Source: a bacterium
GTDB lineage: Bacteria; SAR324; JACQKK01
NCBI GenBank assembly: GCA_965240465.1
Contig: OZ251219.1
Span: 1,248,001 to 1,312,000 of the forward strand
Reading direction: 5' to 3'
DNA: 64,000 bases
Part shown: in pieces, positions 3,957 through 58,668 of the stretch
Layout: every line of letters begins with the position of its first letter
Position numbering within the stretch: position 1 is the first letter of the stretch
Notes under the pieces: model-generated
What the model saw: the letters and a program-made list of their open reading frames with translations, nothing else
Told to the model about the DNA's origin: nothing
The model's database searches: none
Translations under genes and position numbers: made by a program

Positions 3957-5492
3957 ATGACTCTTGAAAAAAATATTTCTCCACCCGCATCAAGCGATCT
4001 TAAGCAGTCTCGTCAGCAAAAACTAACCGCCTTGCGTTCGCTGGGAGTTCAGCCATATGCTCATCGGTTTCAGGTTTCTCATAGGGTGGAAGTTCTTCAG
4101 CGGGCAGGGGACTTGTTGAAAAGCGGACAAAGCATCACTATTGCGGGTCGTTTGGTTACCTCTCGCGATATGGGCAAAGCTGCATTTGCACACCTAAAGG
4201 ATGGTCTCTATCGGATGCAATTTTACATCCGTAGCGATGCTGTCTCGCCCCGTGATTTTCAGGTATTTCAGCTTGCCGACCTCGGTGATTACATCGGGCT
4301 GGAAGGCAGCCTCATGCGTACTCGGACTGGAGAGATCACCCTGCGAGTCACTCGCTTCACCATGCTGACAAAATCGGTCCGCCCCTTGCCGATCGCTAAG
4401 GTAGAAGAGCGAAAAGGAGAGCAAATAGTGCATGATGCTTTCAGCGATGTGGAACTCCGTTACCGACATCGCACGGCAGACCTGGCCACCAATGATTCCT
4501 CTGTTAAGGTATTTTTGCAGCGTTCAGAGATTATCCAAATACTACGCGGCTATTTGCTGGAGCAAGGTTTTTTAGAAGTGGAAACTCCAGTGCTACAAAA
4601 CATTTATGGCGGAGCAGCCGCGGCACCATTTACCACTCATCACAATAGCCTAGACCTTAAAATGTATCTTAGAATTGCCACCGAGCTTTATCTAAAGCGG
4701 TTGGTGGCTGGTGGTCTAGATAGAGTATTTGAGATCGGCAAGGTGTTTCGCAATGAAGGAATTGATAGCTCACACAATCCTGAGTTCACCATGGTGGAAT
4801 TTTATCAAGCCTACGCCGACTATAAGGACATGATGGAGCATGTGGAAAATATTTTTGTCCGCTGTGCCCAAGCCATTTGCGGAAAAAAAACTATTCCCTT
4901 TAGAGGGCATGAAATAGACTTAACTCCTCCTTGGAAACGCATGACCATGCTGGAGGCGGTCTCTAAATTAGGAAAAATTGATTTTGCATCTCTGGACGAT
5001 AAAGCCGTTGAAGCCTTACTATTAGATCGTGGTTGGAATCTGCCCTTAGGTTATCAGCGTGGCTTAGCTTTGGCGAAGCTATTTGAAGAGCTATGCGAAT
5101 CTCAACTGATTCAGCCTACTTTTATCACCGATTTCCCTGCTGAAACTACTCCATTATGTAAGCGTCATCGTCAGTTTCCCGAACTGGCGGAACGCTTTGA
5201 GCCTTTCATAGGCGGTTGGGAAATGGGTAATTCTTACTCCGAACTAACTGAGCCCGCCCTGCAGCGTCAGTTGTTGGAAGAACAAGCAAATAGGCTACAG
5301 CGTGGCGATGCCGAAGCACATCCCTTAGATGATGACTTCTTGTGTGCTATGGAATATGGCATGCCTCCTATGGGAGGAACAGGTCTGGGCGTAGACCGCC
5401 TAGTTATGCTGATCACGGGACAGCCATCCATTCGCGATGTGCTTTTTTTCCCCATTATGCGTCCGCAAAAAAAGGGCGATACTTCTCGATAG
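3957..5492 (+). CDS. lysS: lysyl-tRNA synthetase, class II
   Basis: OB-fold N-terminus, YLRIATELYLKRL, FRNEG, GMPPMGGTGLGVDRL; start moved to ATG 3957. Confidence 0.97.
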   Translation: MTLEKNISPPASSDLKQSRQQKLTALRSLGVQPYAHRFQVSHRVEVLQRAGDLLKSGQSITIAGRLVTSRDMGKAAFAHLKDGLYRMQFYIRSDAVSPRDFQVFQLADLGDYIGLEGSLMRTRTGEITLRVTRFTMLTKSVRPLPIAKVEERKGEQIVHDAFSDVELRYRHRTADLATNDSSVKVFLQRSEIIQILRGYLLEQGFLEVETPVLQNIYGGAAAAPFTTHHNSLDLKMYLRIATELYLKRLVAGGLDRVFEIGKVFRNEGIDSSHNPEFTMVEFYQAYADYKDMMEHVENIFVRCAQAICGKKTIPFRGHEIDLTPPWKRMTMLEAVSKLGKIDFASLDDKAVEALLLDRGWNLPLGYQRGLALAKLFEELCESQLIQPTFITDFPAETTPLCKRHRQFPELAERFEPFIGGWEMGNSYSELTEPALQRQLLEEQANRLQRGDAEAHPLDDDFLCAMEYGMPPMGGTGLGVDRLVMLITGQPSIRDVLFFPIMRPQKKGDTSR

Positions 5493-5513
5493 GACTCCGC
5501 TAAGAGAAAGCCC

Positions 5514-5695
5514 TGCTGAGAGTGCTTGCTGAGAGTGCTTGCTGAGAGTGCTTGCTGGGATGCTCTTGCTGAGAGTGCTTGCTGGGATGCTCTTGCTGAG
5601 AGTGCTTGCTGGGATGCTCTTGCTGAGAGTGCTTGCTGGGATGCTCTTGCTGAGAGTGCTTGCTGGGAGCTCTTGCTGGGATGCTCTTGCTGAGA
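5514..5695. repeat. tandem array of alternating 13/14-bp units (27-bp period tgctgagagtgct-tgctgggatgctct)
   Basis: Read directly between convergent lysS and the next gene. Confidence 0.95.
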
Positions 5696-5717
5696 CACCC
5701 TGCCTCTCAGATAGTGC

Positions 5718-6338
5718 TTAGTACAAACGATAGACGCCACGGGGGTCTATTTTTTCAAATTGTTCCCAACGACTTTGGCAGAGCATCAGGTTAAACATTA
5801 GCTCCGTGCTGGAATTGGATTGGCGACGCTGGGCTTGAGTGCGTTTTTTTATCAGGGATTCTACTTCTGCTGGGTGGATTATCATATAGTTAGAGAAGTA
5901 CATAATTCCGCGGTGATTTATCAGGCGGGTTTGTAGGACGCTATTTACATCTAGGAAGGCGGTTTGATCAGTAGCCAGTACTTTGTATTTATAGCCTTCA
6001 ACCATGTCTTTCAGCAGTATTTCTTTGGAGCTGTTGCGTATCAGCTGAAACACGGAATGGATATTTTCTGTCAGTTCTTGATATCCTGTTTTTTGTTCGG
6101 GAGTGAGCTTGTTGCTTTTACGTTCTAGATAACAAGCTATAGGGGTCTGCCCGTTAAAAAGAGAGCGGTCTAAAACAAACCAATTGAGAAAAGCATTACA
6201 GCGAATCCCAAAAGAAGGTGCTTCTGGACGCATCGTACCTGCGCGTTCAAATTCCTCTCTGGCAGTGCCTACTTCTGCAGCACAGATGGGTAATTTGGTA
6301 ACTTCCTCCAGCAAGGGAGCAATGTAAGGGCTTTCCAT
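5718..6338 (-). CDS. conserved hypothetical protein
   Basis: 206-aa ORF with globular composition (FLNWFVLDR..GQTP). Confidence 0.65.
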   Translation of the reverse strand: MESPYIAPLLEEVTKLPICAAEVGTAREEFERAGTMRPEAPSFGIRCNAFLNWFVLDRSLFNGQTPIACYLERKSNKLTPEQKTGYQELTENIHSVFQLIRNSSKEILLKDMVEGYKYKVLATDQTAFLDVNSVLQTRLINHRGIMYFSNYMIIHPAEVESLIKKRTQAQRRQSNSSTELMFNLMLCQSRWEQFEKIDPRGVYRLY

Positions 6339-6476
6339 TAAATTAATCCTATCTCATCAATTTTTATCAGTCACCTTCGGCATCGCTTTTATTCTTAGAA
6401 CGCCTGCTCCCAGCTGGCATTGTATTCCTCTTGATTGACGCTTGGCAACCAACTTCCGTAGCTATTATAACACTAA

Positions 6477-6618
6477 CAGCCCCTACTCTCCCCTTTTTCT
6501 TCCAGCCCCCTACTCTCCCCTTTTTCTTCCAGCCCCCTACTCTCCCCTTTTTCTTCCAGCCCCCTACTCTCCCCTTTTTCTTCCAGCCCCTACTCTCCCC
6601 CTTTTTCTTCCAGCCAGC
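6477..6618. repeat. 27-bp tandem repeat x5 abutting pnp stop
   Basis: cagccccctactctcccctttttcttc units. Confidence 0.95.
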
Positions 6619-8691
6619 CTATTCTTGATAGCGAGTAAGTTTCAGCTTGCCCCTTTTATCGGTGCCAGATACGCGTACGCTGACGATATCTCCTTCCCGC
6701 ATGAAGTCTTCCACTCGTTCTACTCTTCCTTCTGCCATTTGTGAGATGTGTAGTAGGCCATCGGTACCGGGCAGTAGTTCTATGAATGCTCCAAAATCGG
6801 TCACTTTTTTTACGGGTCCTTTGTAGACGGCCCCGATTTCCACTTCTGCGGTGATATTTTCCACCATTTTCAGTGCTTCTCTAGCTGCTTCGGGGTTTTC
6901 GGAGTGAATTTGAACTGTGCCATCATCTTGTACGTCTACTTTGGCACCTGTTTTTTCAATTATGCTCTTAATGGTTTTTCCGCTGGGGCCGATAAGTTCT
7001 CCGATGCGTCCTGGCTTGATGCGATGTACCAGCATGACGGGGGCATAGGGAGATAGTTCTTTTTTGGATGAAGTGATGGTTTTTTCCATTTCATCCAGAA
7101 TGTTAATACGACCGTCAAGGGCTTGTTTCAGTGCTTGAGCGAGAATATTTTTATCAATTCCGCTGACCTTGATATCCATTTGCAAGGCGGTGATCCCCTC
7201 ACGGGTGCCTGCGACTTTAAAATCCATGTCGCCCAGATGGTCTTCATCTCCCAAGATATCGGAGAGGATGACGGTGATTGTTCCTTCTTTAATCAAGCCC
7301 ATGGCGATACCTGCGGCGTGTTTAGAGATGGGTACTCCAGCATCCATCAGTGCCAGAGAGGCTCCACAGACAGAAGCCATAGAGGAAGAGCCATTGGATT
7401 CCAGAATTTCGGAAGTAATTCTGATAGTGTAGGGAAATTTTTCCTTACTGGGTAATAGTGGTTTGATGCCTTTTTGAGCCAGCATGCCATGCCCGATTTC
7501 TCTTCGTCCTGGGCCTCGCAAGAAGGAGGCTTCCCCGACACAAAAGGGAGGAAAATTGTAGTGAAAAAGAAAATCTTTGAAGCTGACACCATGGAGGTTG
7601 TCAATCAATTGTTGGTCTGAGCGGGCTCCCAGAGTGACGTTGACCAGGGCTTGTGTTTCTCCGCGGGTGAAAAGGGCAGAGCCATGGCAACGCGGCAGCA
7701 AGCCAATTTCGCTATTAATTTCTCTGATATCGGTCTGTGAGCGTCCATCCACCCGAGTGCCTTGGGAGGTGATTTGCTCTCTCATCAGGCGTTTTTTCAG
7801 GTTGCCAAAGATTTTTTCTACCTCTTTTTTGCGAGGTTCTTCATCGGATTGTGGATCATAAAATTTCTCCAGAGCCTGCTTTGACAGGGCATTCAAGGAG
7901 CCATAGCGAGCAAGTTTCTCTTTTTCGCTTAGGCTCTTAAGCAATGGTTCTGAAAACTGAGCTTCCATATTTTTTGCCAAAGCTTCATCAGTTTTGACCT
8001 CAGGTAAAGCACGCTTAGACAAACCAACTTTCTTTTGCAATTCTTCCTGAAGCTCAATCACTGGCAAAAGCTGTTGCTGAGCGAACAAAATAGATTCCAA
8101 AGCCAAATCCTCAGATATCTCATTAGCTTCCCCTTCCACCATCAATAGGCCTTCCTTGGAGCAAGTGACGAATATATCCAGCTCACTTTCAGCCAGCTGA
8201 TCAGGGGTAGGATTAACAATCAGCTTGCCGTCAATTCTGCCTACTCGCATGCCAGCAATGGGTCCTGCAAAAGGGATGTCAGATATGCTCAAGGCGACTG
8301 AAGTACCAATCATGGCTGCTACTCCAGCCTCATTTTTCTTATCGTAGCTAAGCACCGTGGCGATGATTTGGGTCTCATACTGAAATTCTGTGGGGAACAG
8401 CGGACGAATGGAGCGATCAATAAAGCGTGATATTAGGGTTTCATTATCCGAAAGGCGTCCTTCTCGGCGTAAGAACCCGCCAGGGATGCGACCAGCAGCA
8501 TAATGTTTCTCCACATAATGCACCGAAAGCGGAAAGAAGGGTAAGTCTTTAGACTCTTTTTCCGCTACCGCAGTGACAAGTACTACCGTTTCGCCATAAC
8601 GCACTAAGGCGGAACCAGATGCCTGACGAGCAATTCGTCCAACTTCAATTTTTAGGGGATTACCACCCAATTCAGTGGAAACAATTTCCAT
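6619..8691 (-). CDS. pnp: polyribonucleotide nucleotidyltransferase
   Basis: RNase PH domains (IPGGFLRREG, ESNGSSSMAS, DHLGDMDFKVAG), KH and S1 domains. Confidence 0.98.
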   Translation of the reverse strand: MEIVSTELGGNPLKIEVGRIARQASGSALVRYGETVVLVTAVAEKESKDLPFFPLSVHYVEKHYAAGRIPGGFLRREGRLSDNETLISRFIDRSIRPLFPTEFQYETQIIATVLSYDKKNEAGVAAMIGTSVALSISDIPFAGPIAGMRVGRIDGKLIVNPTPDQLAESELDIFVTCSKEGLLMVEGEANEISEDLALESILFAQQQLLPVIELQEELQKKVGLSKRALPEVKTDEALAKNMEAQFSEPLLKSLSEKEKLARYGSLNALSKQALEKFYDPQSDEEPRKKEVEKIFGNLKKRLMREQITSQGTRVDGRSQTDIREINSEIGLLPRCHGSALFTRGETQALVNVTLGARSDQQLIDNLHGVSFKDFLFHYNFPPFCVGEASFLRGPGRREIGHGMLAQKGIKPLLPSKEKFPYTIRITSEILESNGSSSMASVCGASLALMDAGVPISKHAAGIAMGLIKEGTITVILSDILGDEDHLGDMDFKVAGTREGITALQMDIKVSGIDKNILAQALKQALDGRINILDEMEKTITSSKKELSPYAPVMLVHRIKPGRIGELIGPSGKTIKSIIEKTGAKVDVQDDGTVQIHSENPEAAREALKMVENITAEVEIGAVYKGPVKKVTDFGAFIELLPGTDGLLHISQMAEGRVERVEDFMREGDIVSVRVSGTDKRGKLKLTRYQE

Positions 8692-9122: not shown

Positions 9123-10040
9123 CTAGGATCTCTCAGCAAATTCAGGCTGATAGCACTCAATTCCCACTACTTCATTATCACGCGAGCGTACTACTCCTTC
9201 GCACTTTTTAGCAGATATACAAATCCTACCAGGGAAATAAAATCTTAACTCACCCGCTGGTGCTGTATCAGGTACGCGACATATCATTGCAGTAGGGGTT
9301 AGCATTGGGCAGGTAATAGTTTGTTTCTTAGAATCATAGTGGCTCTTCAGATAATAATCGGGGACCACAATAAACTTAGTCCCCATAAACTTCTCATCTA
9401 TATTATCACCAATTATTAGATTGAAGGATGGATAACGCTTGTTGATGGATTTTTGTAGATTGCTACGCTGATGATCAGTAATTATCACATACCTCCCATT
9501 TATCAAACTTATCTGTGAAATTTGGGAAGTGGCTAGCTCGAGCTTATCAAAATTAAGAGGTTCGGCATCTCCAGTTCCGCTAGGGTTTGCCGAGGTTGCA
9601 TTTATGGGAATGATATTTTCCTTTGGAAATGGAATATCCTCATCTATCCCCACACGTGCATCTCCTAAAATTGCAGGTATTCTAACTGAAATATCCATCT
9701 CCTCTTCTATAGCCTGATTCAGACAATCAACAATCTTGGGATGTTTTTTTGTATCAGGCACACCAGTGGCTAATGAAACGTTTACGCAACATTGTAGGGT
9801 TATGTGACGGTTTATCCGTGTAACAACAATGTTACAATGATCGGTTTTAGATTCCCTTGTATAACTGTAATCATTGATTTGTTCAAAAACATTCTCCACC
9901 ACTTCTACATTGCCAAACAACAGCTTGGCAACTGGAGATTTATCCCCACGGGGTAAGCCTTGGAACTTAGCATTAAGGGCTTGCTCTGCTGCTGCTTTTA
10001 CTTCTTCATCAGTTAGTTTATTATGATCTATTTCTGTCAT
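9123..10040 (-). CDS. divergent phage major capsid-like protein (BPP-1 Bbp17-like family), stand-alone
   Basis: Colinear motifs FEQI, AIEEEMD..IPAILGDARVG, FP..IIPIN, LNFDKLELA, YVIITDHQ..NL, FMGTKFI, GVVRSRDNEVVGIEC match my recollection of the family; AGGAGG SD before ATG 10040. Confidence 0.7.
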   Translation of the reverse strand: MTEIDHNKLTDEEVKAAAEQALNAKFQGLPRGDKSPVAKLLFGNVEVVENVFEQINDYSYTRESKTDHCNIVVTRINRHITLQCCVNVSLATGVPDTKKHPKIVDCLNQAIEEEMDISVRIPAILGDARVGIDEDIPFPKENIIPINATSANPSGTGDAEPLNFDKLELATSQISQISLINGRYVIITDHQRSNLQKSINKRYPSFNLIIGDNIDEKFMGTKFIVVPDYYLKSHYDSKKQTITCPMLTPTAMICRVPDTAPAGELRFYFPGRICISAKKCEGVVRSRDNEVVGIECYQPEFAERS

Positions 10041-24365: not shown

Positions 24366-27059
24366 TTGAGGAGCTATGTTCCCGCCGAGATTGAGCCACG
24401 GATCTACGAAGAATGGTTGCGGGGTAATCATTTTGCTCCTGTTGGGGAGCGAGGAGAGTTAGAGAAGGGTTCTAAATATTTTTGCATTGTTGTTCCTCCC
24501 CCGAATGTTACTGGTTCTCTGCATTTAGGGCATGCTTGGGATAGCACCCTACAGGATATTCTCGTTCGCTGGATGCGGATGGATGGTTGTCCTACGCTTT
24601 GGCTGCCGGGGACTGACCATGCGGGGATTGCTACTCAGTGGATGGTGGAGTCTCAGTTGCAAGAAGAGGGATGCAGTAAGGAGCAGCTGGGGCGAGAAGC
24701 ATTTTTGAAGCGGGTGTGGCAATTTAAGGAGACATCGCAGCAAAATATTACTAATCAATTGAAGCAGCTGGGGGTTTCTTGCGATTGGGGTCGGGAACGC
24801 TTTACGCTGGATGAGACTCTTTCCCGAGCGGTGCGGTGTGCCTTTGTAAAGCTGTATCAGGCGGGGTTGATTTATCGGGGGCTACGGATGGTCAATTGGA
24901 GTCCTCGTTTGAGGTCGGCAGTTTCTGATCTGGAAGTAGAACATCGTGATGTGCAAGGAAGCATGTATCACCTGCTTTATCCCTTTGAAGATGGTCCCCT
25001 ACCAGATGGTCGTCAGGGGGTAGTGATTGCTACCACCCGACCAGAGACCATGCTGGCTGATGGAGCAGTGGCTTTTAATCCCGCTGATGAACGCTATGCG
25101 GGACTGGAAGAAAAAAACTTGATCCTGCCAATCATAAAACGCAAGCTCCCTTTGATAAAAGATGAACAGGTCAAGCAAGATTTTGGCACTGGGGCAGTGA
25201 AAATTTCGGTGGGGCATGATTTCAATGATTTTGAGATCGGCAAACGACATAACATTCCCGTCTATGAAGTGATGGATAAAAAAGGCTGCATGTGCGGTGA
25301 TATTCCTCAGCGATATCAGGGGCTTGATCGTTATGTGGCTCGGAAAAAGATTGTAGCAGAACTTAAAGAGCAGGGGGTACTAGTGAAAATAGAGCCTCAT
25401 GAGCACTCGGTTGGGTATTGTGGTCGGAGTGGGGAGCCTGTGGAGCCTTGTGTTTCTACTCAATGGTTTGTGAGTACCAAGGATATGGCAATTCAAGCTC
25501 TGGAAGTAGTTAATAGCAGGCGAGTTAGGTTAATCCCTCAATTTCAGGAAAAAATATTCGCTGAATGGATGGATAACATTCAAGAGTGGTGTATTTCGCG
25601 TCAGCTTTGGTGGGGACATCGCATTCCCGCTTGGTACTGTGAGGACTGCAAAGGGGTAACCGTGGCTGAAGACATTCCTAATTGTTGTCAGCATTGTCAA
25701 TCCAAGCAAATAGAGCAGGATAGGGATGTACTGGATACTTGGTTTAGCTCGTCCCTGTGGCCTTTCAGCGTTATGGGTTGGCCTGAGGAAACTTCCGACC
25801 TAAAAACCTTCTTTCCCACTACGGTGCTAGTTACTGGGTATGACATCCTATTCTTCTGGGTAGCCCGAATGATAATGATGTCCTTACAGCTGTTGGAGAC
25901 CATCCCTTTTGATGAAGTACTGCTGCACGGCTTGCTACGGGATGAAAAAGGAATAAAAATGTCAAAAACCAAGGGCAATGGACTTGACCCCTTAAAGCTA
26001 ATCAACATCCATGGTGCCGATGCCCTAAGGATGGCTCTGGCAGCTGGCACCAACCTTGGACATGACATGTCGCTGGCGGAAAGCTCTTGTGAGGCGATGC
26101 GGAATTTTGTCAACAAGCTTTGGAATGCCTCTCGTTTTGTTTTGGGTCATAAGGAGCGTCTGGGAGAGCCACCTGCTCTTATGTCTGCTCTTACGTCTGA
26201 TGTGTCTGCTCTACCTGAGTTTCCTTTGTTTGAGGCTTGGATTTTTTCCCGTTTGCAACAGGTGACCGTAGAAACTCGCCAGTTTTTAGAGGCTAGGCGT
26301 TTTAATGAAGCTGCCAAGCTTTTGTATAATTTCGTTTGGCGTGAGTACTGCGATTGGTACTTGGAATCGGTCAAGCCGACTCTTCTTTCGGACAAGGAGG
26401 TGTTTCGGCAGGCGGGGTGGGCGGTATCTCATCAGGTATTGGTGGAGGTGCTGAAGCTATTGCATCCTTTTATTCCCTTTGTGACGGAGCATTTATGGGG
26501 GATCCTCCAGCCTCAGGCAAAACCCCTGATCATGTGTACCTATCCTCAAGGTATGGAGTTAGCTAAGCAGCCTGATAGCTTGCGGCGAACCGCTAAGGAA
26601 GCCGATCGCCTTATCGCAGTGATAAGGGAAGTACGCACCGTCCGCAGTGAGAGCGTAGTGCCTCCTCAGGCGAGGATCCCCGTTCAGATTAGCAGTGCCG
26701 ATGAGGATATTTGTCAGCTACTGGAGCGACACAAAGCCTTATTTATGAATTTAGCCAAGTTGAGCTCGGTGGGATTTGGGGGTCAGGACACCAAAAACTG
26801 GGTGCGTGGAGTAGGAGACGGATTTGAAGTGGCTTTGTGCTTGGAGGGGGTGATGGATACAGCCAAAGAGCTACAGAGATTGGAAAAAGAAAAGATAAAA
26901 TTGTATGCTGAACTTCAGCAAGTGCGTATCAAGTTAGAAAATAAGTTATTTATGAGTAAAGCTCCTCCGCTGGTGGTGAAGAAAAATCGTGAACGCAATG
27001 ATTCTCTGAAAACCCAATTATCTAAGCTAGACCGCAGCTTAAGAAGATTATCCACTTGA
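24366..27059 (+). CDS. valS: valyl-tRNA synthetase
   Basis: PPPNVTGSLHLGH, WCISRQLWWGHRIP, KMSKT, C-terminal coiled coil. Confidence 0.98.
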   Translation: MRSYVPAEIEPRIYEEWLRGNHFAPVGERGELEKGSKYFCIVVPPPNVTGSLHLGHAWDSTLQDILVRWMRMDGCPTLWLPGTDHAGIATQWMVESQLQEEGCSKEQLGREAFLKRVWQFKETSQQNITNQLKQLGVSCDWGRERFTLDETLSRAVRCAFVKLYQAGLIYRGLRMVNWSPRLRSAVSDLEVEHRDVQGSMYHLLYPFEDGPLPDGRQGVVIATTRPETMLADGAVAFNPADERYAGLEEKNLILPIIKRKLPLIKDEQVKQDFGTGAVKISVGHDFNDFEIGKRHNIPVYEVMDKKGCMCGDIPQRYQGLDRYVARKKIVAELKEQGVLVKIEPHEHSVGYCGRSGEPVEPCVSTQWFVSTKDMAIQALEVVNSRRVRLIPQFQEKIFAEWMDNIQEWCISRQLWWGHRIPAWYCEDCKGVTVAEDIPNCCQHCQSKQIEQDRDVLDTWFSSSLWPFSVMGWPEETSDLKTFFPTTVLVTGYDILFFWVARMIMMSLQLLETIPFDEVLLHGLLRDEKGIKMSKTKGNGLDPLKLINIHGADALRMALAAGTNLGHDMSLAESSCEAMRNFVNKLWNASRFVLGHKERLGEPPALMSALTSDVSALPEFPLFEAWIFSRLQQVTVETRQFLEARRFNEAAKLLYNFVWREYCDWYLESVKPTLLSDKEVFRQAGWAVSHQVLVEVLKLLHPFIPFVTEHLWGILQPQAKPLIMCTYPQGMELAKQPDSLRRTAKEADRLIAVIREVRTVRSESVVPPQARIPVQISSADEDICQLLERHKALFMNLAKLSSVGFGGQDTKNWVRGVGDGFEVALCLEGVMDTAKELQRLEKEKIKLYAELQQVRIKLENKLFMSKAPPLVVKKNRERNDSLKTQLSKLDRSLRRLST

Positions 27060-27080: not shown

Positions 27081-27152
27081 TGTTTCACCTATGTTTCACT
27101 TAGCTTTTACCTATGTTTCACTTAGCTTTCACCTATGTTTCACCTAAGTTTC
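27081..27152. repeat. 11-bp alternating repeat (tttcacctatg/tttcacttagc)
   Basis: Read directly after valS stop. Confidence 0.85.
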
Positions 27153-27268
27153 CCTGAATTTTTGAGTAGTAGCTGATGAGTTGGATTATCGGAATTGTGG
27201 GGGTAATGTTAATATCTCATTGGTATTTTCATCGTGGCTTGAGTGCTAGTAGGCGGTCTCCAGATCGC

Positions 27269-28708
27269 TCACCCTCCAAAAAATGAGCCTGAAAAGGATT
27301 TGATTCTCTCGATGCGTCCGCTCTTGCGGACATTATGTATTGGCAATCTTGGTTTCTTTCTTTTTAACATGTCTTCAACACTCAATCCTTGTATCACGGG
27401 ATATGTCCCTGCACTATCAGAAAACACTTCCTTGTTTCGGTTGTTTTCTACCGTTTTCATGTACTTTTCAAAGCAGATCATTACTCCAGCAAGGGCATTG
27501 AATTCTTTAACCGTGGAATATAATCGCCCTACCGCGTCTGGAGTAACTCCTCCTCCCTTTACTTGAATAATGACAATCTCTTTTTTAGGCTTCTTGCCAA
27601 AATTGAAGGGATAGGTTTCCAATATTCCATCAACGCCCCCATCAGCACCTTTATCTCCTGGATTATGGTACATCCCACTGGCTCCGATGTAACCACAGAC
27701 CCATTTCTCAAATTCAAACTTGTCTTGCTCGGCTAATTTAATGGCTTCTGTGGTGGTTGTCGGGGTACCATATAATTTTATATTCAGTCCCTGAAAATTA
27801 CTTGTCAGTCTTTCATTGACTAAGCCAGTAGAGAATTTGGATATGTCAATGCCGATCCATTGGCGTTTTAGTTTTTCTGCTGCGTGAAGAGTAGTGCCAC
27901 AGCCGCAAAAGGGGTCAAGGATGAGATCGCCCTTATTTGAAGAAGCCTTAATGATGCGGTCCATAAGAGATAGCGGCTTTTGGGTCGGGTAGCCAAGACG
28001 TTCTTTTTCTTGAGAATTTAATGCTTGTATATCTGTCCAAACATCCATCGGCAATTTTTTATCATCATCTTTTGTTATCCTTGCTCCTTTAAATTGTGCT
28101 CTTCGAATAGATTTTTCTGTTCTGCTTACTTTTACTCTTTGAAGGTTTATCTCGTAGTTTTTACTTTTAGAATAAATAAATATCGTGTCATGCTTTTTTG
28201 CAAACCATTTCTCACATGCTCCACCTGTTTGATAATGCCAAATAATTTCATTCCTAAAATTACCAGCCCCGAAAATAGCATCCATCAAGAGCTTTATGTA
28301 ATGACTGGCGGTCGGGTCACAATGCAGGTAAATGCTGCCCGTCCCCTTTAGTACCCGATGCATTTGGACCAAGCGGAGTGCCATGTTGGTAAGATAGGCA
28401 GCTAGGCTTACCTTCCCAAGTGATTTATTGATCTGATCCGATAAAGACACAATATCAGCCAGTATTCTTGTTTTGGGACCTTTCTTAAGTTGCTCAAGAA
28501 TCTCTATTTCTGTTTCACCCCAATCCCAAGTGTCTTTGAAGGCTTCTACTGCCTTGATATCTTTGCCGAGTTTCTTAAACGGAAGATTGTAAGTACTATT
28601 TGAATTGAAGGGAGGGTCAAGGTAGATTAAATCAACGCTTCCAGTTGGTAATGCCAGTTCATCATTTAAGGTGTTTAGACAATCATCAGCATAAAGTTCT
28701 CGTTTCAT
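27269..28708 (-). CDS. beta-class amino-DNA methyltransferase fused to Mrr-like nuclease domain, copy A
   Basis: DPPF (motif IV) before DPFCGCGT (motif I); YPTQKP; C-terminal FEKW..GADGGVDG..IIQVKG. Confidence 0.88.
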   Translation of the reverse strand: MKRELYADDCLNTLNDELALPTGSVDLIYLDPPFNSNSTYNLPFKKLGKDIKAVEAFKDTWDWGETEIEILEQLKKGPKTRILADIVSLSDQINKSLGKVSLAAYLTNMALRLVQMHRVLKGTGSIYLHCDPTASHYIKLLMDAIFGAGNFRNEIIWHYQTGGACEKWFAKKHDTIFIYSKSKNYEINLQRVKVSRTEKSIRRAQFKGARITKDDDKKLPMDVWTDIQALNSQEKERLGYPTQKPLSLMDRIIKASSNKGDLILDPFCGCGTTLHAAEKLKRQWIGIDISKFSTGLVNERLTSNFQGLNIKLYGTPTTTTEAIKLAEQDKFEFEKWVCGYIGASGMYHNPGDKGADGGVDGILETYPFNFGKKPKKEIVIIQVKGGGVTPDAVGRLYSTVKEFNALAGVMICFEKYMKTVENNRNKEVFSDSAGTYPVIQGLSVEDMLKRKKPRLPIHNVRKSGRIERIKSFSGSFFGG

Positions 28709-28772
28709 TTTGGTATCCTTATTTCTTTTAACCAGGGGGACATCTTCGCCAAAAGGATCGCAACGCCAGCAG

Positions 28773-28856
28773 TGCCCAAGAGAGGACTTGAACCTCCACT
28801 AGTGTTACCTCACTAGAACCCGAATCTAGTGCGTCTGCCAATTCTGCCACTTAGGC
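28773..28856 (-). tRNA. tRNA-Leu-derived gene with CGG anticodon (allo-tRNA or pseudogene)
   Basis: 84-nt paralog of 30423-30506 with 5 substitutions; anticodon arm CTAGA-TT-CGG-GT-TCTAG. Confidence 0.8.
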
Positions 28857-28867
28857 TGACAGCCCTC

Positions 28868-28896
28868 ATTATGTCAGGGGAGTTATCAAGCAGCAA
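28868..28896 (-). promoter_or_regulatory. sigma70-like promoter of tRNA/MTase copy A
   Basis: TTGCTG-17 nt-CATAAT, identical in copy B. Confidence 0.6.
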
Positions 28897-28933
28897 GTAT
28901 TTGTGTTTTAGTGCTTAATTTATTGTATAGCCA

Positions 28934-30364
28934 TTATTTGATCCCCTTGATGCGTCCGCTCTTGCGAGTATAACTTGCGGGCAATCTTGGTTTCTTTCTT
29001 TTTAACATGTCTTCAATGCTTAATCCCTGTATTACTGGATAGCTTCCAACACTGTCGTGAAACTTTTCCTTGTTTCGGTTGTTTTCCACCGTTTTCATGT
29101 ACTTTTCAAAGCAGATCATTACTCCAGCAAGGGCGTTGAATTCTTTAACCGTGGAATATAATCGCCCTACCGCGTCTGGAGTAACTCCTCCTCCCTTTAC
29201 TTGAATAATGACAGTTTCTTTTTCAGGATTCTTGCCAAAATTGATTGTATAAATTTCCAATACTCCATCAACGCCTCCATCAGCACCTTTATCTCCTGGA
29301 TTGTGGTACATCCCATTGGCTCCGATGTGACCACAGACCCATTTCTCAAATTCAAACTTGTCTTGCTTGGCTAATTCCATGGCTTCTGTGGTGGTTGTCG
29401 GGGTACCATATAATTTTATATTCAGTCCCTGAAAATTACTTGTCAGTCTTTCATTGACTAAACCATTAGAGAATTTGGATATGTCAATGCCGATCCATTG
29501 GCGTTTTAGTTTTTCTGCTGCGTGAAGAGTAGTGCCACAGCCGCAAAAGGGGTCAAGGATGAGATCACCCTTATTTGAAGAAGCCTTAATGATACGCTCC
29601 ATAAGAGCTAGCGGCTTTTGGGTTGGGTAGCCAAGATGCTCTTTTTTACTTTTAATATGAGGAATATCCCAAACGGTGTCAGGTATTTTTCCATTCTTGG
29701 TAAGGTAGCCTGCCTCACCTTCCTGCCTAGTGAAACCAGCACCCCCGTACTTTGCACGTGATAAGGTACTCTTAGCATAAGGGATTAATACATCCTGATG
29801 ATTAAATATGAAGTTTTTACTCTTTGTGTATCTGAATAACACATCATGTTTTTTGGGAAAATCTGTTTCGGTTCTACTCATACTAGGGTAGTGCCAAATA
29901 ATTTCATTCCTAAAATTACCAGCCCCGAAAATAGCATCCATCAAGAGCTTTAGATAATGACTGGCGGTCGGGTCACAATGCAGGTAAATGCTACCCGTCC
30001 CCTTTAGTACCCGATGCATTTGGACCAAGCGGAGTGCCATGTTGATAAGGTAGGCAGGCAGGCTTATCTTGCCAAGTGATTTATTCACCTGATCCGATAA
30101 AGACACAATATCAGCTAGTATTTTTGTTTGAGGACTCTTTTTAAGTTGCTCAATAATCTCTATTTCTGTTTCACCCCAATCCCAAGTGTCCTTGAAGGCC
30201 TCTACCGCTCGGACATTTTCTCTGAATTTCTTAAACGGAAGATTGTAAGTACTATTTGAATTGAAGGGAGGGTCAAGATAGATTAAATCAACGCTTTCAG
30301 TTGGTAATGCCAGTTCATCATTTAAGATGTTTAGACAATCATCAGCATAAAGTTCTTGTTTCAC
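28934..30364 (-). CDS. beta-class amino-DNA methyltransferase fused to Mrr-like nuclease domain, copy B
   Basis: Same motifs as copy A; GTG start with AAGGA SD; different central region. Confidence 0.88.
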   Translation of the reverse strand: MKQELYADDCLNILNDELALPTESVDLIYLDPPFNSNSTYNLPFKKFRENVRAVEAFKDTWDWGETEIEIIEQLKKSPQTKILADIVSLSDQVNKSLGKISLPAYLINMALRLVQMHRVLKGTGSIYLHCDPTASHYLKLLMDAIFGAGNFRNEIIWHYPSMSRTETDFPKKHDVLFRYTKSKNFIFNHQDVLIPYAKSTLSRAKYGGAGFTRQEGEAGYLTKNGKIPDTVWDIPHIKSKKEHLGYPTQKPLALMERIIKASSNKGDLILDPFCGCGTTLHAAEKLKRQWIGIDISKFSNGLVNERLTSNFQGLNIKLYGTPTTTTEAMELAKQDKFEFEKWVCGHIGANGMYHNPGDKGADGGVDGVLEIYTINFGKNPEKETVIIQVKGGGVTPDAVGRLYSTVKEFNALAGVMICFEKYMKTVENNRNKEKFHDSVGSYPVIQGLSIEDMLKRKKPRLPASYTRKSGRIKGIK

Positions 30365-30422
30365 GTCCTTATTTCTTTTAACTAGGGGGATATTTTCGCC
30401 AAAAGGATCGCAACGCCAGCAG

Positions 30423-30506
30423 TGCCCAAGAGAGGACTTGAACCTCCACGAGTGTTACCTCACTAGAACCTGAATCTAGCGCGTCTGCCAATTCCGCCAC
30501 TTGGGC
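30423..30506 (-). tRNA. tRNA-Leu(CAG)
   Basis: GCCCAAG/CTTGGGC acceptor stem, CTAGA-TT-CAG-GT-TCTAG, long variable arm, GTTCAAG T-loop, A discriminator. Confidence 0.95.
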
Positions 30507-30517
30507 TGACGGTTTTC

Positions 30518-30546
30518 ATTATGTCAGGGGAGTTATCAAGCAGCAA
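30518..30546 (-). promoter_or_regulatory. sigma70-like promoter of tRNA/MTase copy B
   Basis: TTGCTG-17 nt-CATAAT. Confidence 0.6.
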
Positions 30547-30738
30547 GTATTTGTGTTTTAGGACTTAATTTATTGGCTCGGTATGGTTGATGGCTAGGTG
30601 GTTTAAATTATTTTTATAAGCGTTGACAAAGGGCGTCTTCTGCTGTTGTGATGTGCGTGGGGGTTGAGTTGGGGGGTTGGGGGGTTGGGTGAGTCAGCCT
30701 GTGTACTAGTTATGTAGGACACCTTTATTCCTTAAAGC

Positions 30739-30954: not shown

Positions 30955-30971
30955 CAACCGATAAATTGATA

Positions 30972-31022
30972 GCTGCAAGAAATTGGTGGCTGCAAGAAAT
31001 TGGTGGTTGCAAGAAATTGGTG
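30972..31022. repeat. 17-bp repeat x3 (gctgcaagaaattggtg)
   Basis: Read directly. Confidence 0.85.
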
Positions 31023-31180
31023 ATTAATTGCAGAGAAACAGGTTCTGTATTCGCTCGGTACTTCTGGGTGTCAATGGAGGTTCTTGGTGAGGAAAAGTTC
31101 GGGGGGGGGGCTTTATGGGCTAGCATTGTTTGGCTATCTGGAGTAGGATGCTGGGTGGCTTAAGCGGACTTTATTGGAGT

Positions 31181-31254
31181 GCGTCCGTAGCTCAGCTGGA
31201 TAGAGCAATGGCCTTCGAAGCCATGTGTCGCAGGTTCGAATCCTGCCGGACGCG
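31181..31254 (+). tRNA. tRNA-Arg(TCG)
   Basis: GCGTCCG/CGGACGC acceptor stem, ATGGC-CT-TCG-AA-GCCAT, GGTTCGAATCC. Confidence 0.95.
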
Positions 31255-31306
31255 TATTTTTTTGAGGTTGAGAGTAGGCTTGATAACTAGTGTTTCGCAA
31301 ATAAAG

Positions 31307-31390
<84 letters not shown>

Positions 31391-31452
31391 TTGTTTTTCC
31401 AGCCTGATTGGCACATCGCGAACCGATAGCATATATTTTCAAGGAAAAAACC

Positions 31453-32853
31453 ATGTCTCCAGCTTCTCCGCCATCCTCTTCTCCGCCATCCTCTTCTCCG
31501 CCATCCTCGGAATCGGGGTCTGAATTTGCAGTCGGCATGCGGGTGAAGGTCTTAAATAATAAGCGATTACAAAGGGTACTACATATTGATGCCCCCTTAG
31601 AGCGAGTACAAAAAGCATACAATGACGTCTACGATAACTTGAAAAAAAACATGCGAGTGCCTGGATTTCGGGCAGGAAGATTTCCTAAGGAAATGGCTAA
31701 TAAACGCTTTCGTGAGGTGATGTCGCAAAAAGTTTTAGGAGGCTTGGCACCTAAGTATTTTCAAGCTGCGATAGAACAATTGAAGTTATCTCCAGCCACT
31801 CCGCCTAGCTTTTCCAAGCTGGAGGTAGATATCCAAAAACCGCTCTCTTTTGAAGTGGAATTTGAAGTAGTCCCAGAATTTCGGCTGCTGGACCCCAGCA
31901 AGTTTAAGCTAAAAAGAGAATCCCTCCCCCCAGCTGAACCAGCAGAAATAGATGGACAAATTGATAAACTGCGGCGAGAAAAAGCTCAGTTTAAGCCAAG
32001 CAGTACTACGGCTGCCAAAGGCGATGTGGTCATCTTTGATTTTCAAGGTCGGCTGGAAGGACAGACTTTTTCAGGCGGAAGTGGTGAAAATCAACGCTTG
32101 GAGGTAGGAGGAACAGGCTATCTGCCCGATTTCCAAAGTCAGTTTGAAGGCGTTTCTAGCGGTCAGAAGAAGGTATTTTCCCTTTCTTTTCCTGCCGATT
32201 ATGAGGCAACTGAGCTGGCAGGTAAACAGGTTGAATTCACTGTGAACATCAAGGAGGTACAACAAATAATCCTGCCTGAGGTCAATCAGGAATTTTTGAA
32301 GGGTTTTGGCGAATTCAAGGATCTAAAAGAATTTCGCGATAAAATAAGCCAGCTGATAGATAGCCAAAAAAAGCACCAACAGCACCGTCAACTGGTGGAT
32401 ACTTTGGCACAGCAAATTCAAGATAAATATAGCTTTGATGTTCCCGAGCGACTGATAAATAGAGGATTAGAAATTCTAAAAGAAAAAATGGATAAACAAA
32501 ATCCTCCTCCAGATAAAAAAACTCGTAAAAAATATCTGGCTGAGGAAGAAAAACGTATTTGCAGCGGATTAAAGCTCAATTATGTGGTGGAAGCCCTAGT
32601 ACGTGCTTACGGTATAAGGGTTGATCCAGTAGAACTACGACAACGTTTCAACATGCAAGCCATGATGGCTCGCCAAGATCCCTCCGAATTGATGAACTCC
32701 CCCAATGGTGAAAAAATGATGCAAGAAATCCATGACAATATCCTGTATGAACGATCATTAGGCCATTTTAGTGCCTTGATACTCGGGGAACTACCTCACA
32801 AATCCCCCGACAAATCCCCCGATAAATCCCCCGACAAATCCAAAGGAAAATGA
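31453..32853 (+). CDS. tig: trigger factor
   Basis: VPGFRAGR signature, FKBP domain ([13 protein letters not shown]); SPPSS x3 N-terminal and KSPD x3 C-terminal repeats. Confidence 0.93.
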
Positions 32854-57684: not shown

Positions 57685-57861
57685 TGACTAGCATCTGGTT
57701 ATCATTGTGGCAAGTTTAGAATGTGAAATGCAATAGGCTTTATCATAGTACACGGTCTGCAGAAAAGAGATACAAGGGAGATATTTTGTAGGTCTGCTTG
57801 ACAGCATCATAGGCAAGAGTCTACCGTCACTAGTAATTGACAAATTAGCACAAGGTTGACG

Positions 57862-58668
57862 ATGCTCAAAAGAAACCAGATACATTGCGGGGATGCTTTT
57901 GATCTACTGAAAAAAGTTGATGATGAGTCAATTGATCTGGTGATTTGTGATGGACCTTATGGTGTCACTCAAAAGGAGTGGGATAAAGTACCTTCCATCC
58001 AAGAATTCAATTTGGAACTTATCAAGCGGTTTTGTTTGAAGTTGAAGAATGGAGGGGTACTCTATCTTTTCGGGAAACCAAATTGTCTTGATTTTATTGA
58101 TTACCGACCCTACTTGAATTTAATATCAAAAATAGTTTGGTATCAGCCGAGTAGGCTAGCACAGGGCAAGCTTAGGTACACAAACAACTATGATATTATT
58201 GGATATTTTATAAAAGGCAAATCTCCTCGCTGTTATAACTTGGATTGTATAAGAGTGCCGCAGTTAGTTGAGTTAGAACATAGATTGAGATGTGAAAAGG
58301 TTCCTTCTGTAAGGAATGGTGAGTATGGGAGAACAAAGTTTAATGACAAGGGAAAGAATCCAGGTGATGTCTGGGGAGACATAAAACAACTAACTTATAA
58401 ATCTAAAGAGTTGGTTTCAAGAGAGGCTCTAAACACAATTCAAAAACCAAAGAGATTGATTGAAAGGCTTGTACTTGCAAGTTCTAATGAAGGTGATGTT
58501 GTGTTGGACCCATTTTCTGGTGTGGGGACTTGTCCTGTTGTCTGCAAGGAACTTAAGAGGGATTTTATAGCATTTGAAATACAGCCAGACTACGTGGAAA
58601 TAGCTAAAAGAAGATTTTTTGAAAGTGTAGTACAGGAAAAATTATTTTATGGCGTCGGACGTCTATAA
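57862..58668 (+). CDS. beta-class N4-C/N6-A DNA methyltransferase
   Basis: DGPY motif IV, QKP, VLDPFSGVGT motif I. Confidence 0.9.
   Translation: MLKRNQIHCGDAFDLLKKVDDESIDLVICDGPYGVTQKEWDKVPSIQEFNLELIKRFCLKLKNGGVLYLFGKPNCLDFIDYRPYLNLISKIVWYQPSRLAQGKLRYTNNYDIIGYFIKGKSPRCYNLDCIRVPQLVELEHRLRCEKVPSVRNGEYGRTKFNDKGKNPGDVWGDIKQLTYKSKELVSREALNTIQKPKRLIERLVLASSNEGDVVLDPFSGVGTCPVVCKELKRDFIAFEIQPDYVEIAKRRFFESVVQEKLFYGVGRL

Follow-up and report, generated by a model that had tools for sequence, protein, structure and literature searches.

On the minus strand of a 64,000-nt stretch of a SAR324 bacterial genome (positions 1,248,001 to 1,312,000 of contig OZ251219.1, assembly GCA_965240465.1; hereafter the window) lies a tandem pair of genes that encode a methyltransferase (MTase) fused to a nuclease-type domain, each preceded by a long-arm tRNA gene. 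Transcription meets tRNA-Leu(CAG) first, then open reading frame (ORF) B, a second long-arm tRNA and ORF A. A first-pass annotation had described two direct tandem cassettes here. Repeat finding and a MAFFT alignment bear this out: a unit of ~1.64 kb is present twice, head to tail, at 30575..28935 (the upstream unit, copy B) and 28925..27300 (the downstream unit, copy A). Each unit begins with a conserved upstream block, which is followed by a long-arm tRNA and then by an ORF for a class beta N6/N4 MTase with an Mrr-type nuclease domain. Both ORFs contain a divergent target-recognition domain (TRD). The features of the array, in window coordinates and in the order of transcription, are as follows.

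30507..30575, minus strand: upstream block of copy B; the 5' edge of the unit is at ~30575, and the windows near 30550-30520 are 100% identical to copy A
30422..30506, minus strand: tRNA-Leu(CAG), 85 nt, long variable arm, the intact copy (ARAGORN; Rfam tRNA, 52.9 bits)
28934..30364, minus strand: ORF B, 476 aa, GTG start, C-terminal tail shortened by the junction; MTase at residues 25-297, Mrr_cat at 332-424
29647..29896, minus strand: TRD-B, ~residues 160-243 of ORF B, of the class of the closest outside homolog, P0003 (alignment)
28926..28940, minus strand: duplication junction, where the ORF B stop and ~10 nt of unique sequence separate unit B from unit A
28857..28925, minus strand: upstream block of copy A, a duplicate of 30507-30575 and part of repeat family D3 (210 nt, 93%)
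28772..28856, minus strand: duplicated tRNA with a Leu-type body and the anticodon CGG (Pro) (ARAGORN, tRNA-Pro(CGG); Rfam, 44.8 bits)
27269..28708, minus strand: ORF A, 479 aa, ATG start, original 3' end, the same two-domain fusion (Pfam, alignment)
28009..28240, minus strand: TRD-A, ~residues 160-237 of ORF A, of a different, old TRD class (alignment)

Three long direct-repeat families connect the two units, with start-to-start spacings of 1638-1656 nt. Outside the TRD the copies are ~90-100% identical at the DNA level, most 30-nt windows of a sliding identity profile lying between 0.8 and 1.0; judged from this alignment, a 1.6-kb repeat of such quality cannot be a product of chance. Homology between B and A sets in at 30575/28925, ~70 nt 5' of each tRNA, ends at ~28935/27300 within the last ORF codons, and is not continued into the true flanks beyond either unit. 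Unit B has retained the original 5' flank, and its ORF tail is shortened at the junction (ending in SGRIKGIK); unit A has a longer tail (ending in IKSFSGSFFGG) and retains the original 3' flank. Because the unit ends are defined, the junction is novel, B is truncated and A has the original 3' end, the array has the structure of a true tandem duplication.

The array does not have the structure of a programmed switch, such as a Type I hsdS shufflon or a phase-variable mod gene, in which a recombinase would act on inverted repeats or a simple-sequence tract in the gene or its promoter would vary. The copies are direct repeats, no tandem repeats or simple-sequence tracts were found inside 27269-30364, and no inverted repeats were found between the copies. 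Integrase and transposase models had no match in 31 window ORFs of at least 250 aa (the 32 ORFs of that size minus the two fusion ORFs, plus clpP) or in one 71-aa ORF, a scan that left shorter ORFs outside; within this range, the first-pass statement that no integrase is present stands. Nor does the locus look like a tRNA-integrated island, with an integrase and a far-end repeat of the tRNA 3' part only. The whole tRNA has been duplicated together with ~70 nt of 5' sequence, and its 25-nt 3' part is not found outside the two full copies.

Both ORFs combine a nuclease domain and an MTase in one polypeptide, as the first-pass annotation had proposed in calling them MTase/Mrr-like fusions. The Pfam family N6_N4_Mtase (PF01555) matches each with 169-170 bits against a cut-off of 26.7 (E ~1e-49), and Mrr_cat (PF04471) matches residues ~330-424 of each with 27.1-27.3 bits against a cut-off of 21 (E ~4e-6), a weak, passing score. 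The NCBIfam models for adenine-specific MTases and for CcrM stay below their cut-offs (111-115 bits against 292 for the adenine-specific model). The motif DPPF at residues 31-34 lies N-terminal to FCGCGT at 273-278, with the variable block 160-243 between them. This is the order of class beta MTases, motif IV, then TRD, then motif I (PMC7544214; here and below, papers with PMC numbers are cited from excerpts of their text), and it puts the TRD between the motif IV block and motif I, which bears out its placement in the first-pass annotation. An AlphaFold2 (AF2) model of ORF B, built from a 32-sequence alignment, has a mean predicted local distance difference test score (pLDDT) of 83 and a predicted TM-score (pTM) of 0.85, and its C-terminal domain is confidently modelled. 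The top Foldseek matches of this model in the PDB are M.RsrI, M.BceJIV and M.MboIIA (E ~1e-16), with target-normalised TM-scores of 0.71-0.81, against 0.52 for CcrM. A phmmer search of the PDB agrees, returning class beta N6-adenine MTases at E 1e-20 to 1e-15. The predicted modification is probably N6-adenine. The window proteins thus share sequence, fold and the motif order IV-TRD-I with M.RsrI (1nw8, 1eg2), M.BceJIV (8urk), M.MboIIA (1g60) and CcrM (6pbd), from which they differ in being ~170 residues longer, with the Mrr-type domain added at the C-terminus.

The C-terminal domain is a putative nuclease. The PD-(D/E)XK core fold follows the order helix, strand, strand, helix, strand, and the secondary structure that AF2 predicts for residues 336-418 runs in this order, which is consistent with a nuclease core. 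Across 32 family sequences E340, D362 and D366 do not vary, and conservation of Q388 and K390 is at least 90%; D366 and Q388-V-K390 form the acidic residue plus QxK signature, kept in the family, that is described for Mrr-type nucleases (PMC12707154). Taken in isolation, residues 311-476 gave a single-sequence AF2 model with a pLDDT of 48, too low for use, and a phmmer search of the PDB with the isolated domain returned chance-level matches only. Two annotation resources were uninformative on the nuclease: PADLOC matched generic MTase_II, MTase_III and orphan-MTase models only, and PHROGs returned 'DNA methyltransferase' families, two families of unknown function and a weak DNA-helicase match.

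Type IIG enzymes have a gamma-class MTase, with the nuclease at the N-terminus and the TRD at the C-terminus. We considered Type IIG/IIC membership for the window proteins and rejected it, because their MTase is of class beta and N-terminal and their nuclease C-terminal. No characterisation of the beta-MTase/Mrr_cat architecture was found in the literature searched; papers on Haloferax (PMC5867850) and Metamycoplasma (PMC10305163), examined as possible precedents, concern other proteins in the excerpts cited.

The two copies part company in a single block. Across 29896..29647 in B and 28240..28009 in A, the identity of 30-nt windows is 0.2-0.63. This block lies within ~10 nt of where the first-pass annotation had put it, and its edges are as sharp as had been claimed: on both sides identity changes inside one 15-nt step, at the codons for NEIIWHY and LGYPTQKP. 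In the 381 codons outside the TRD, synonymous divergence (dS) is 0.18 and nonsynonymous divergence (dN) 0.056, a ratio (omega) of 0.31. Within the TRD, the proportion of synonymous differences (pS) is 0.82, which is saturated, dN is 0.63 and omega is undefined. By this measure the parts of the MTase-nuclease outside the TRD have been under purifying selection and kept functional in both genes. Because the divergence within the TRD is much more ancient than that of the flanks, the TRD would have been swapped by recombination, as the first-pass annotation had suggested, and not diverged in place. The gene, so read, is a mosaic.

The relatives of the two TRDs point to a direction for this swap. 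TRD-B is 65% identical to the TRD of P0003, and the rest of the protein 59%; since TRD-B is like the TRD of the closest outside homolog, it is probably the resident one. In a region-restricted search, TRD-A-like segments were up to 62-65% identical to TRD-A, in host proteins whose N-terminal parts were 44-53% identical (two at 67%). TRD-A may thus come from another branch of the family, because the TRD match exceeds the N-terminal match, the reverse of the usual pattern.

A search of relatives for swapped TRDs, which the first-pass annotation had proposed as a check, shows that exchange extends well beyond this locus. The family search scored at least 8000 relatives, nearly all 460-550 aa long and most with both Pfam domains; among the matches listed, the highest identity to ORF B is 60%, copy A (79%) aside. 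We compared TRDs pairwise in the best 120 homologs (7140 pairs). In 114 of the 145 pairs that are at least 80% identical outside the TRD, identity inside it is below 50%, and two control segments of equal length gave no discordant pairs at all (0/50 and 0/36). P0061 and P0094, for example, are 98% identical outside the TRD and 33% inside. The converse also occurs, with at least 19 pairs in which the TRD is more than 15 points more similar than the rest. Similar flanks around different TRDs, and TRDs common to otherwise diverged proteins, are the marks of 'domain movement'. We therefore read TRD exchange as a trait of the whole protein family and not of this cassette.

The nuclease part also varies. 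A hand count of the C-terminal modules of TRD-A-like proteins (P0241-P0358), among the 120 matches listed, gave 39 of HNH type, 35 of Mrr_cat/NA-iREase1 and 1 T5orf172, the other 45 having no precomputed nuclease domain. The HNH-type group spans HNH, HNH_5 and Endonuclease_7 modules. Because the TRD-A class is joined to several C-terminal modules or to none, the nuclease part appears modular. Together, a modular nuclease, hypervariable TRDs, solitary genes and mobility suggest a single-chain restriction-modification role for the family.

One of these proteins, P0358, is encoded outside the window, apparently in the same genome. It is a 398-aa class beta MTase fused to HNH-type nuclease domains, with a TRD closer to TRD-A (51% identity) than to TRD-B (35%). 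The genome of A and B seems to hold a second gene with the TRD-A class and a different nuclease module. A further, stand-alone class beta MTase ORF of 270 aa lies in the window at 57856..58668 on the plus strand; it is PRK11524-like, though its 124 bits fall short of the cut-off (292), and it shares 26% identity with P0358. In all, the 1.6-Mb genome appears to have at least four class beta MTases.

A collection of genomes gave 614 pattern matches, of which 599 were confirmed, and 80 of the 599 were examined as loci, the window's own genome and that of P0003 not being among them. These loci come from Chloroflexota, Alphaproteobacteria (many of them Sphingomonas), Verrucomicrobiota and other groups. 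A tandem pair of full-length fusions occurs in one of the 80, L023, from a metagenome-assembled genome (MAG) of Caldilinea aerophila; partial extra MTase homologs only were seen in three further loci. The L023 copies lie at 5044-6555 and 6566-8260, the second directly 3' of the first. At the DNA level their flanks mostly share 82-97% identity, apart from two 40-nt windows at 0.72 and 0.65, and their TRDs, from NFRNEIVW to ERIGYPTQKP, are 17-60% identical. No tRNA is present in the L023 locus, and no correspondence of TRD class was found between window A/B and L023 1/2 (26-50% identity over short stretches). Because the L023 pair is independent, a tandem pair with different TRDs would have arisen at least twice.

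A tRNA lies close upstream of the family member on the same strand in two of the 80 loci. In L039 it is a tRNA-Gly(GCC) (9887-9961), ~40 nt upstream, and in L080 a tRNA-Leu(CAG) (9308-9400), ~600 nt upstream, with an IS1-type transposase ORF after the MTase. These two loci suggest tRNA-proximal insertion hot spots. The tRNA in the window we take to be an accident of the insertion site and not part of the mechanism. In 31 loci (124 ORFs) no conserved neighbour partner was found; the adjacent genes have housekeeping roles and no relation to one another, and now and then a transposase or a further modification gene lies among them. A full-length relative is present in 28 of the 851 phage records that matched and in 6 of the 702 plasmid records, where the annotation is 'DNA methyltransferase' only.

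The MTase gene was most probably gained horizontally by a deep-branching, poorly sampled organism. The G+C content of the cassette, 40-42%, is below that of the preceding 1-kb bin (26001-27000, 49%) and of the second bin beyond the cassette (31001-32000, 47.5%). Homologs in other phyla share 54-60% identity with the MTase, and the best relatives of the adjacent trigger factor are 57%, 39% and then ~30% identical. Horizontal acquisition would follow because G+C is low, the MTase has relatives at this level in other phyla where trigger factor finds so few, and relatives lie on phages and plasmids; the lineage appears poorly sampled because the closest relatives of its trigger factor reach only 57% and 39%. 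The neighbours in the window are core housekeeping genes.

The claim that a tRNA-Leu leads each copy was right for the upstream copy, a tRNA-Leu(CAG), and wrong for the downstream one, which retains the 85-nt Leu-type body, the long variable arm and A73 but has the anticodon of a tRNA-Pro. Five of its 85 positions are substituted relative to the upstream tRNA.

C4U: a C-G pair becomes U.G
G12A: one of the three D-stem pairs is lost
G27A: a G.U pair becomes A-U, and a Watson-Crick pair is gained
A35G: the anticodon CAG becomes CGG
C to A in the variable arm: a G-C pair becomes G.A

Two stems are thus weakened by a pair each, and one stem has gained a Watson-Crick pair. We assign the changes to copy A because copy B has the state shared with the nearby tRNA-Leu(TAG) at both comparable positions. 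On the simplest view, the duplicated tRNA would be a redundant copy heading to a pseudogene.

The CGG tRNA could be either a decaying copy or a CCG reader that inserts leucine. The bacterial leucyl-tRNA synthetase is not known to read the anticodon; if the CGG tRNA is expressed and charged by this enzyme, leucine would be inserted at CCG codons. No proline codon is rarer in the window than CCG (5.8 per 1000; 91 of the 797 Pro codons of 32 ORFs), and the two MTase genes are enriched in it (10 of their 40 Pro codons). Remoulding of tRNAs after gene duplication is known. Among bacterial mistranslating tRNAs, tRNA-Pro bodies with other anticodons have been described (PMC10365949). As in those mismatched-anticodon tRNAs, a single anticodon substitution in a duplicated tRNA gene shifts the codon here, from CUG to CCG. 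Unlike the cases in the excerpts of that paper, the body here is of Leu type with a Pro anticodon, two stems are weakened, and the copy may be decaying.

We consider it probable that the locus arose by tandem duplication of a horizontally acquired, solitary MTase-nuclease gene and by TRD exchange at its conserved, motif-coding flanks. The chromosome would have carried a tRNA-Leu(CAG) with its upstream block, and a solitary MTase-nuclease gene would have been acquired 57 nt downstream of it. The 1.64-kb unit would then have been duplicated head to tail, and one TRD replaced by homologous recombination within the DNA that encodes the NEIIWHY and GYPTQKP flanks, TRD-B being the likely ancestral state and TRD-A the imported one. 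As an outcome, one genome would hold two methylation specificities and perhaps two restriction specificities. The tRNA-type upstream block would probably drive transcription of both genes, which may share a single transcript. The second tRNA, being redundant, would have drifted to CGG. Transcription through the unit is compatible with the lack of predicted minus-strand terminator-like sites in the cassette, including the tRNA-ORF gaps and the gap between ORF B and tRNA A, and co-transcription, even of the whole array, is plausible. ORF A has AAGGA 7 nt before its ATG.

Several points weigh against this reading. The promoter that the first-pass annotation had placed before each tRNA is a by-eye reading of TTGCTG-17 nt-CATAAT, within a stretch of ~45 nt that is 100% identical between the blocks 5' of the tRNAs; a consensus scan reported no sigma-70-type promoter upstream of either tRNA. 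A 6-nt gap in ORF B relative to ORF A (30364-30372 versus 28708-28722) leaves AAGGA only 1 nt before the GTG, and because of this spacing B may be translated poorly, or at a different rate than A. The 'freely drifting' tRNA copy is not secure either, because the synonymous-site rate (pS 0.158) would predict ~13 changes and there are only five, though this number is near the rate in adjacent non-coding DNA (~9%). No near-identical donor of TRD-A was found, the best match of the region-restricted search being 65%; because of this the import is undated, and paralogs with gene conversion would give the same picture. A small doubt also attaches to the join between the units, which we take to be genuine. 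Finally, distinct specificities of A and B, the promoter, co-transcription, nuclease activity and the direction of the swap are all things that we infer from sequence.

The lack of a close donor is what one would expect if the two genes were ancient tandem paralogs, each with its own TRD, in which gene conversion homogenises the flanks, the tRNA and the upstream block and stops at the TRD, with no import at all. Identity varies along the flanks and includes long perfect stretches; the longest of these, 33 identical codons, was reached in 4.2% of shuffles (p = 0.042, borderline), dS in the central MTase part is 0.09, below the 0.20 of the N- and C-terminal parts, and the same architecture recurs in L023. 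However, the clustering of synonymous differences, a test for gene conversion, was not significant (p = 0.23), the genome of P0003 is probably single-copy (P0003 alone represents it in the best 120 matches), and ORF B has its tail truncated by the junction, as a simple and fairly recent duplication predicts. On balance we regard ancient paralogs as possible but unlikely. It is less likely still that A and B form an obligate pair, either as a heterodimer, class beta MTases being enzymes that act as dimers whose subunits divide the work, or with each enzyme modifying one strand of an asymmetric site, so that selection keeps the tandem. Type IIS systems do use two MTases, one per strand of an asymmetric site, and purifying selection on both ORFs and the independent pair with two TRDs in L023 would fit such a division of labour, as would the dimerisation that the beta motif order imposes (PMC7544214). 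Yet 79 of the 80 related loci have no second full-length fusion, from which it follows that the family normally works from one gene, and the TRD classes of the window and L023 pairs do not correspond.

Two further readings give the tRNA a larger part. One sees in the locus a self-contained unit driven by the tRNA promoter, an uncharacterised single-chain restriction-modification class with an exchangeable nuclease module, in which the second tRNA has been remoulded and is functional at CCG. If this reading, which we hold to be quite improbable, were true, the class would join a beta MTase to an Mrr-type, HNH, Endonuclease_7 or T5orf172 module and would gain new specificities by duplication and TRD exchange, and the CCG-reading tRNA would act as a Pro-to-Leu mistranslator or else serve CCG as a new supplier. 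The other is the model of the first-pass annotation, in which a cassette dedicated to diversification is amplified along with its tRNA promoter and undergoes programmed, frequent TRD swaps. Direct repeats of 1.6 kb with ~90-100% identity can, we would expect, undergo unequal crossing-over, and family-wide TRD discordance, the second tandem case in L023 and the tRNA-Gly of L039 all speak for it. The comparison across loci does not sustain it, with a tRNA close upstream in only two of 80, a tandem in one of 80, and no tRNA in L023. Moreover, no recombinase turned up among the large ORFs scanned, no inverted repeats link the copies, and the ORFs contain no simple-sequence tracts; a flank dS of 0.18 means that the copies have long coexisted without homogenisation or loss, and the duplicated tRNA is degrading and not conserved as a promoter module. 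We consider a dedicated cassette very unlikely. An assembly artefact that joined two strain alleles of one locus would be the most trivial explanation, and the contig probably stems from a metagenome-type assembly of a poorly sampled lineage. Against it, homology stops at defined unit edges with a novel junction and does not continue into the real flanks, a strain with allele A only would lack the tRNA-Leu(CAG) at this locus, and the same architecture occurs in an independent assembly from another phylum (L023). The chance of such an artefact seems to us slight in the extreme.

Under the preferred reading, duplication followed by TRD exchange, the locus has clear parallels in known systems. 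TRD exchange in restriction-modification genes has been described in Helicobacter pylori as 'domain movement' (Furuta et al. 2011, PMC3077401; see also Furuta et al. 2014, PMC3983042; Furuta & Kobayashi 2012, PMC3467074). As there, the catalytic flanks are conserved, the recognition domain is replaced, recombination in the flanks is the likely route and a change of specificity the likely outcome. In the excerpts, the H. pylori genes are of the Type I S, Type IIG and Type III mod kinds and are compared between strains; here, in contrast, the gene is a solitary beta-class fusion, both alleles lie side by side in one genome, and a tRNA has been duplicated with them. The nuclease part is like EcoKMrr and the MspJI family in its Mrr_cat match and in its acidic residue plus Q-x-K signature (PMC12707154). 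In those enzymes, as excerpted, the nuclease is coupled with a domain that reads modified DNA (winged helix or SRA), whereas here it is joined to the MTase, a writer. With RM.BpuSI (PMC3185434) the window proteins share a nuclease, an MTase and a TRD in one polypeptide, as well as solitary, horizontally mobile genes and hypervariable TRDs. RM.BpuSI, as described in the same excerpts, has the nuclease at the N-terminus and recognition and methylation at the C-terminus; in the window proteins this order is reversed, and the MTase is of class beta.

The surroundings of the array hold a few features of their own. The valine-tRNA synthetase gene valS is the convergent neighbour of ORF A, and between the convergent ends of the two, at 27081-27163, lies a tandem array of an 11-bp unit, TGTTTCACCTA (a 22-bp super-unit, 94% matches), that looks like a binding-site array. 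In L016 (1073-3823), from a Calditrichaeota MAG, valS lies directly upstream of the family member; its proximity to a family member in both L016 and the window is probably a coincidence. Upstream of the cassette, GTTGGGGG is repeated 2.8 times at 30668-30689, a C-rich run on the minus strand. Further out, at 30963-31022 and upstream of a tRNA-Arg, a 17-bp repeat (AAATTGGTGGCTGCAAG) occurs 3.5 times; it has a weak Rfam match to ssnA (24.1 bits, under the gathering score of 37.3). The trigger factor gene tig (31408-32853, plus strand) carries an in-frame 15-bp repeat near its N-terminus (SPPSS three times, 31463-31508) and an SPDK tail, also three times. A match to a GspC 'delta' model in the window is a hint of affiliation only.

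Exchange of TRDs between alleles is known; what is new here is the exchange in the form of a tandem pair within one genome. If the specificities of A and B differ, this genome contains the alleles from before and after a change of specificity. Such intermediates are rarely seen, TRD swaps usually being deduced by comparing strains. The tRNA with a Leu-type body and the anticodon of proline offers a test case for whether duplicated bacterial tRNA genes turn into mistranslators or decay. More broadly, the fusion family, with at least 8000 relatives, some on phages and plasmids, that carry the annotation 'DNA methyltransferase', may be an overlooked type of single-chain restriction-modification system.

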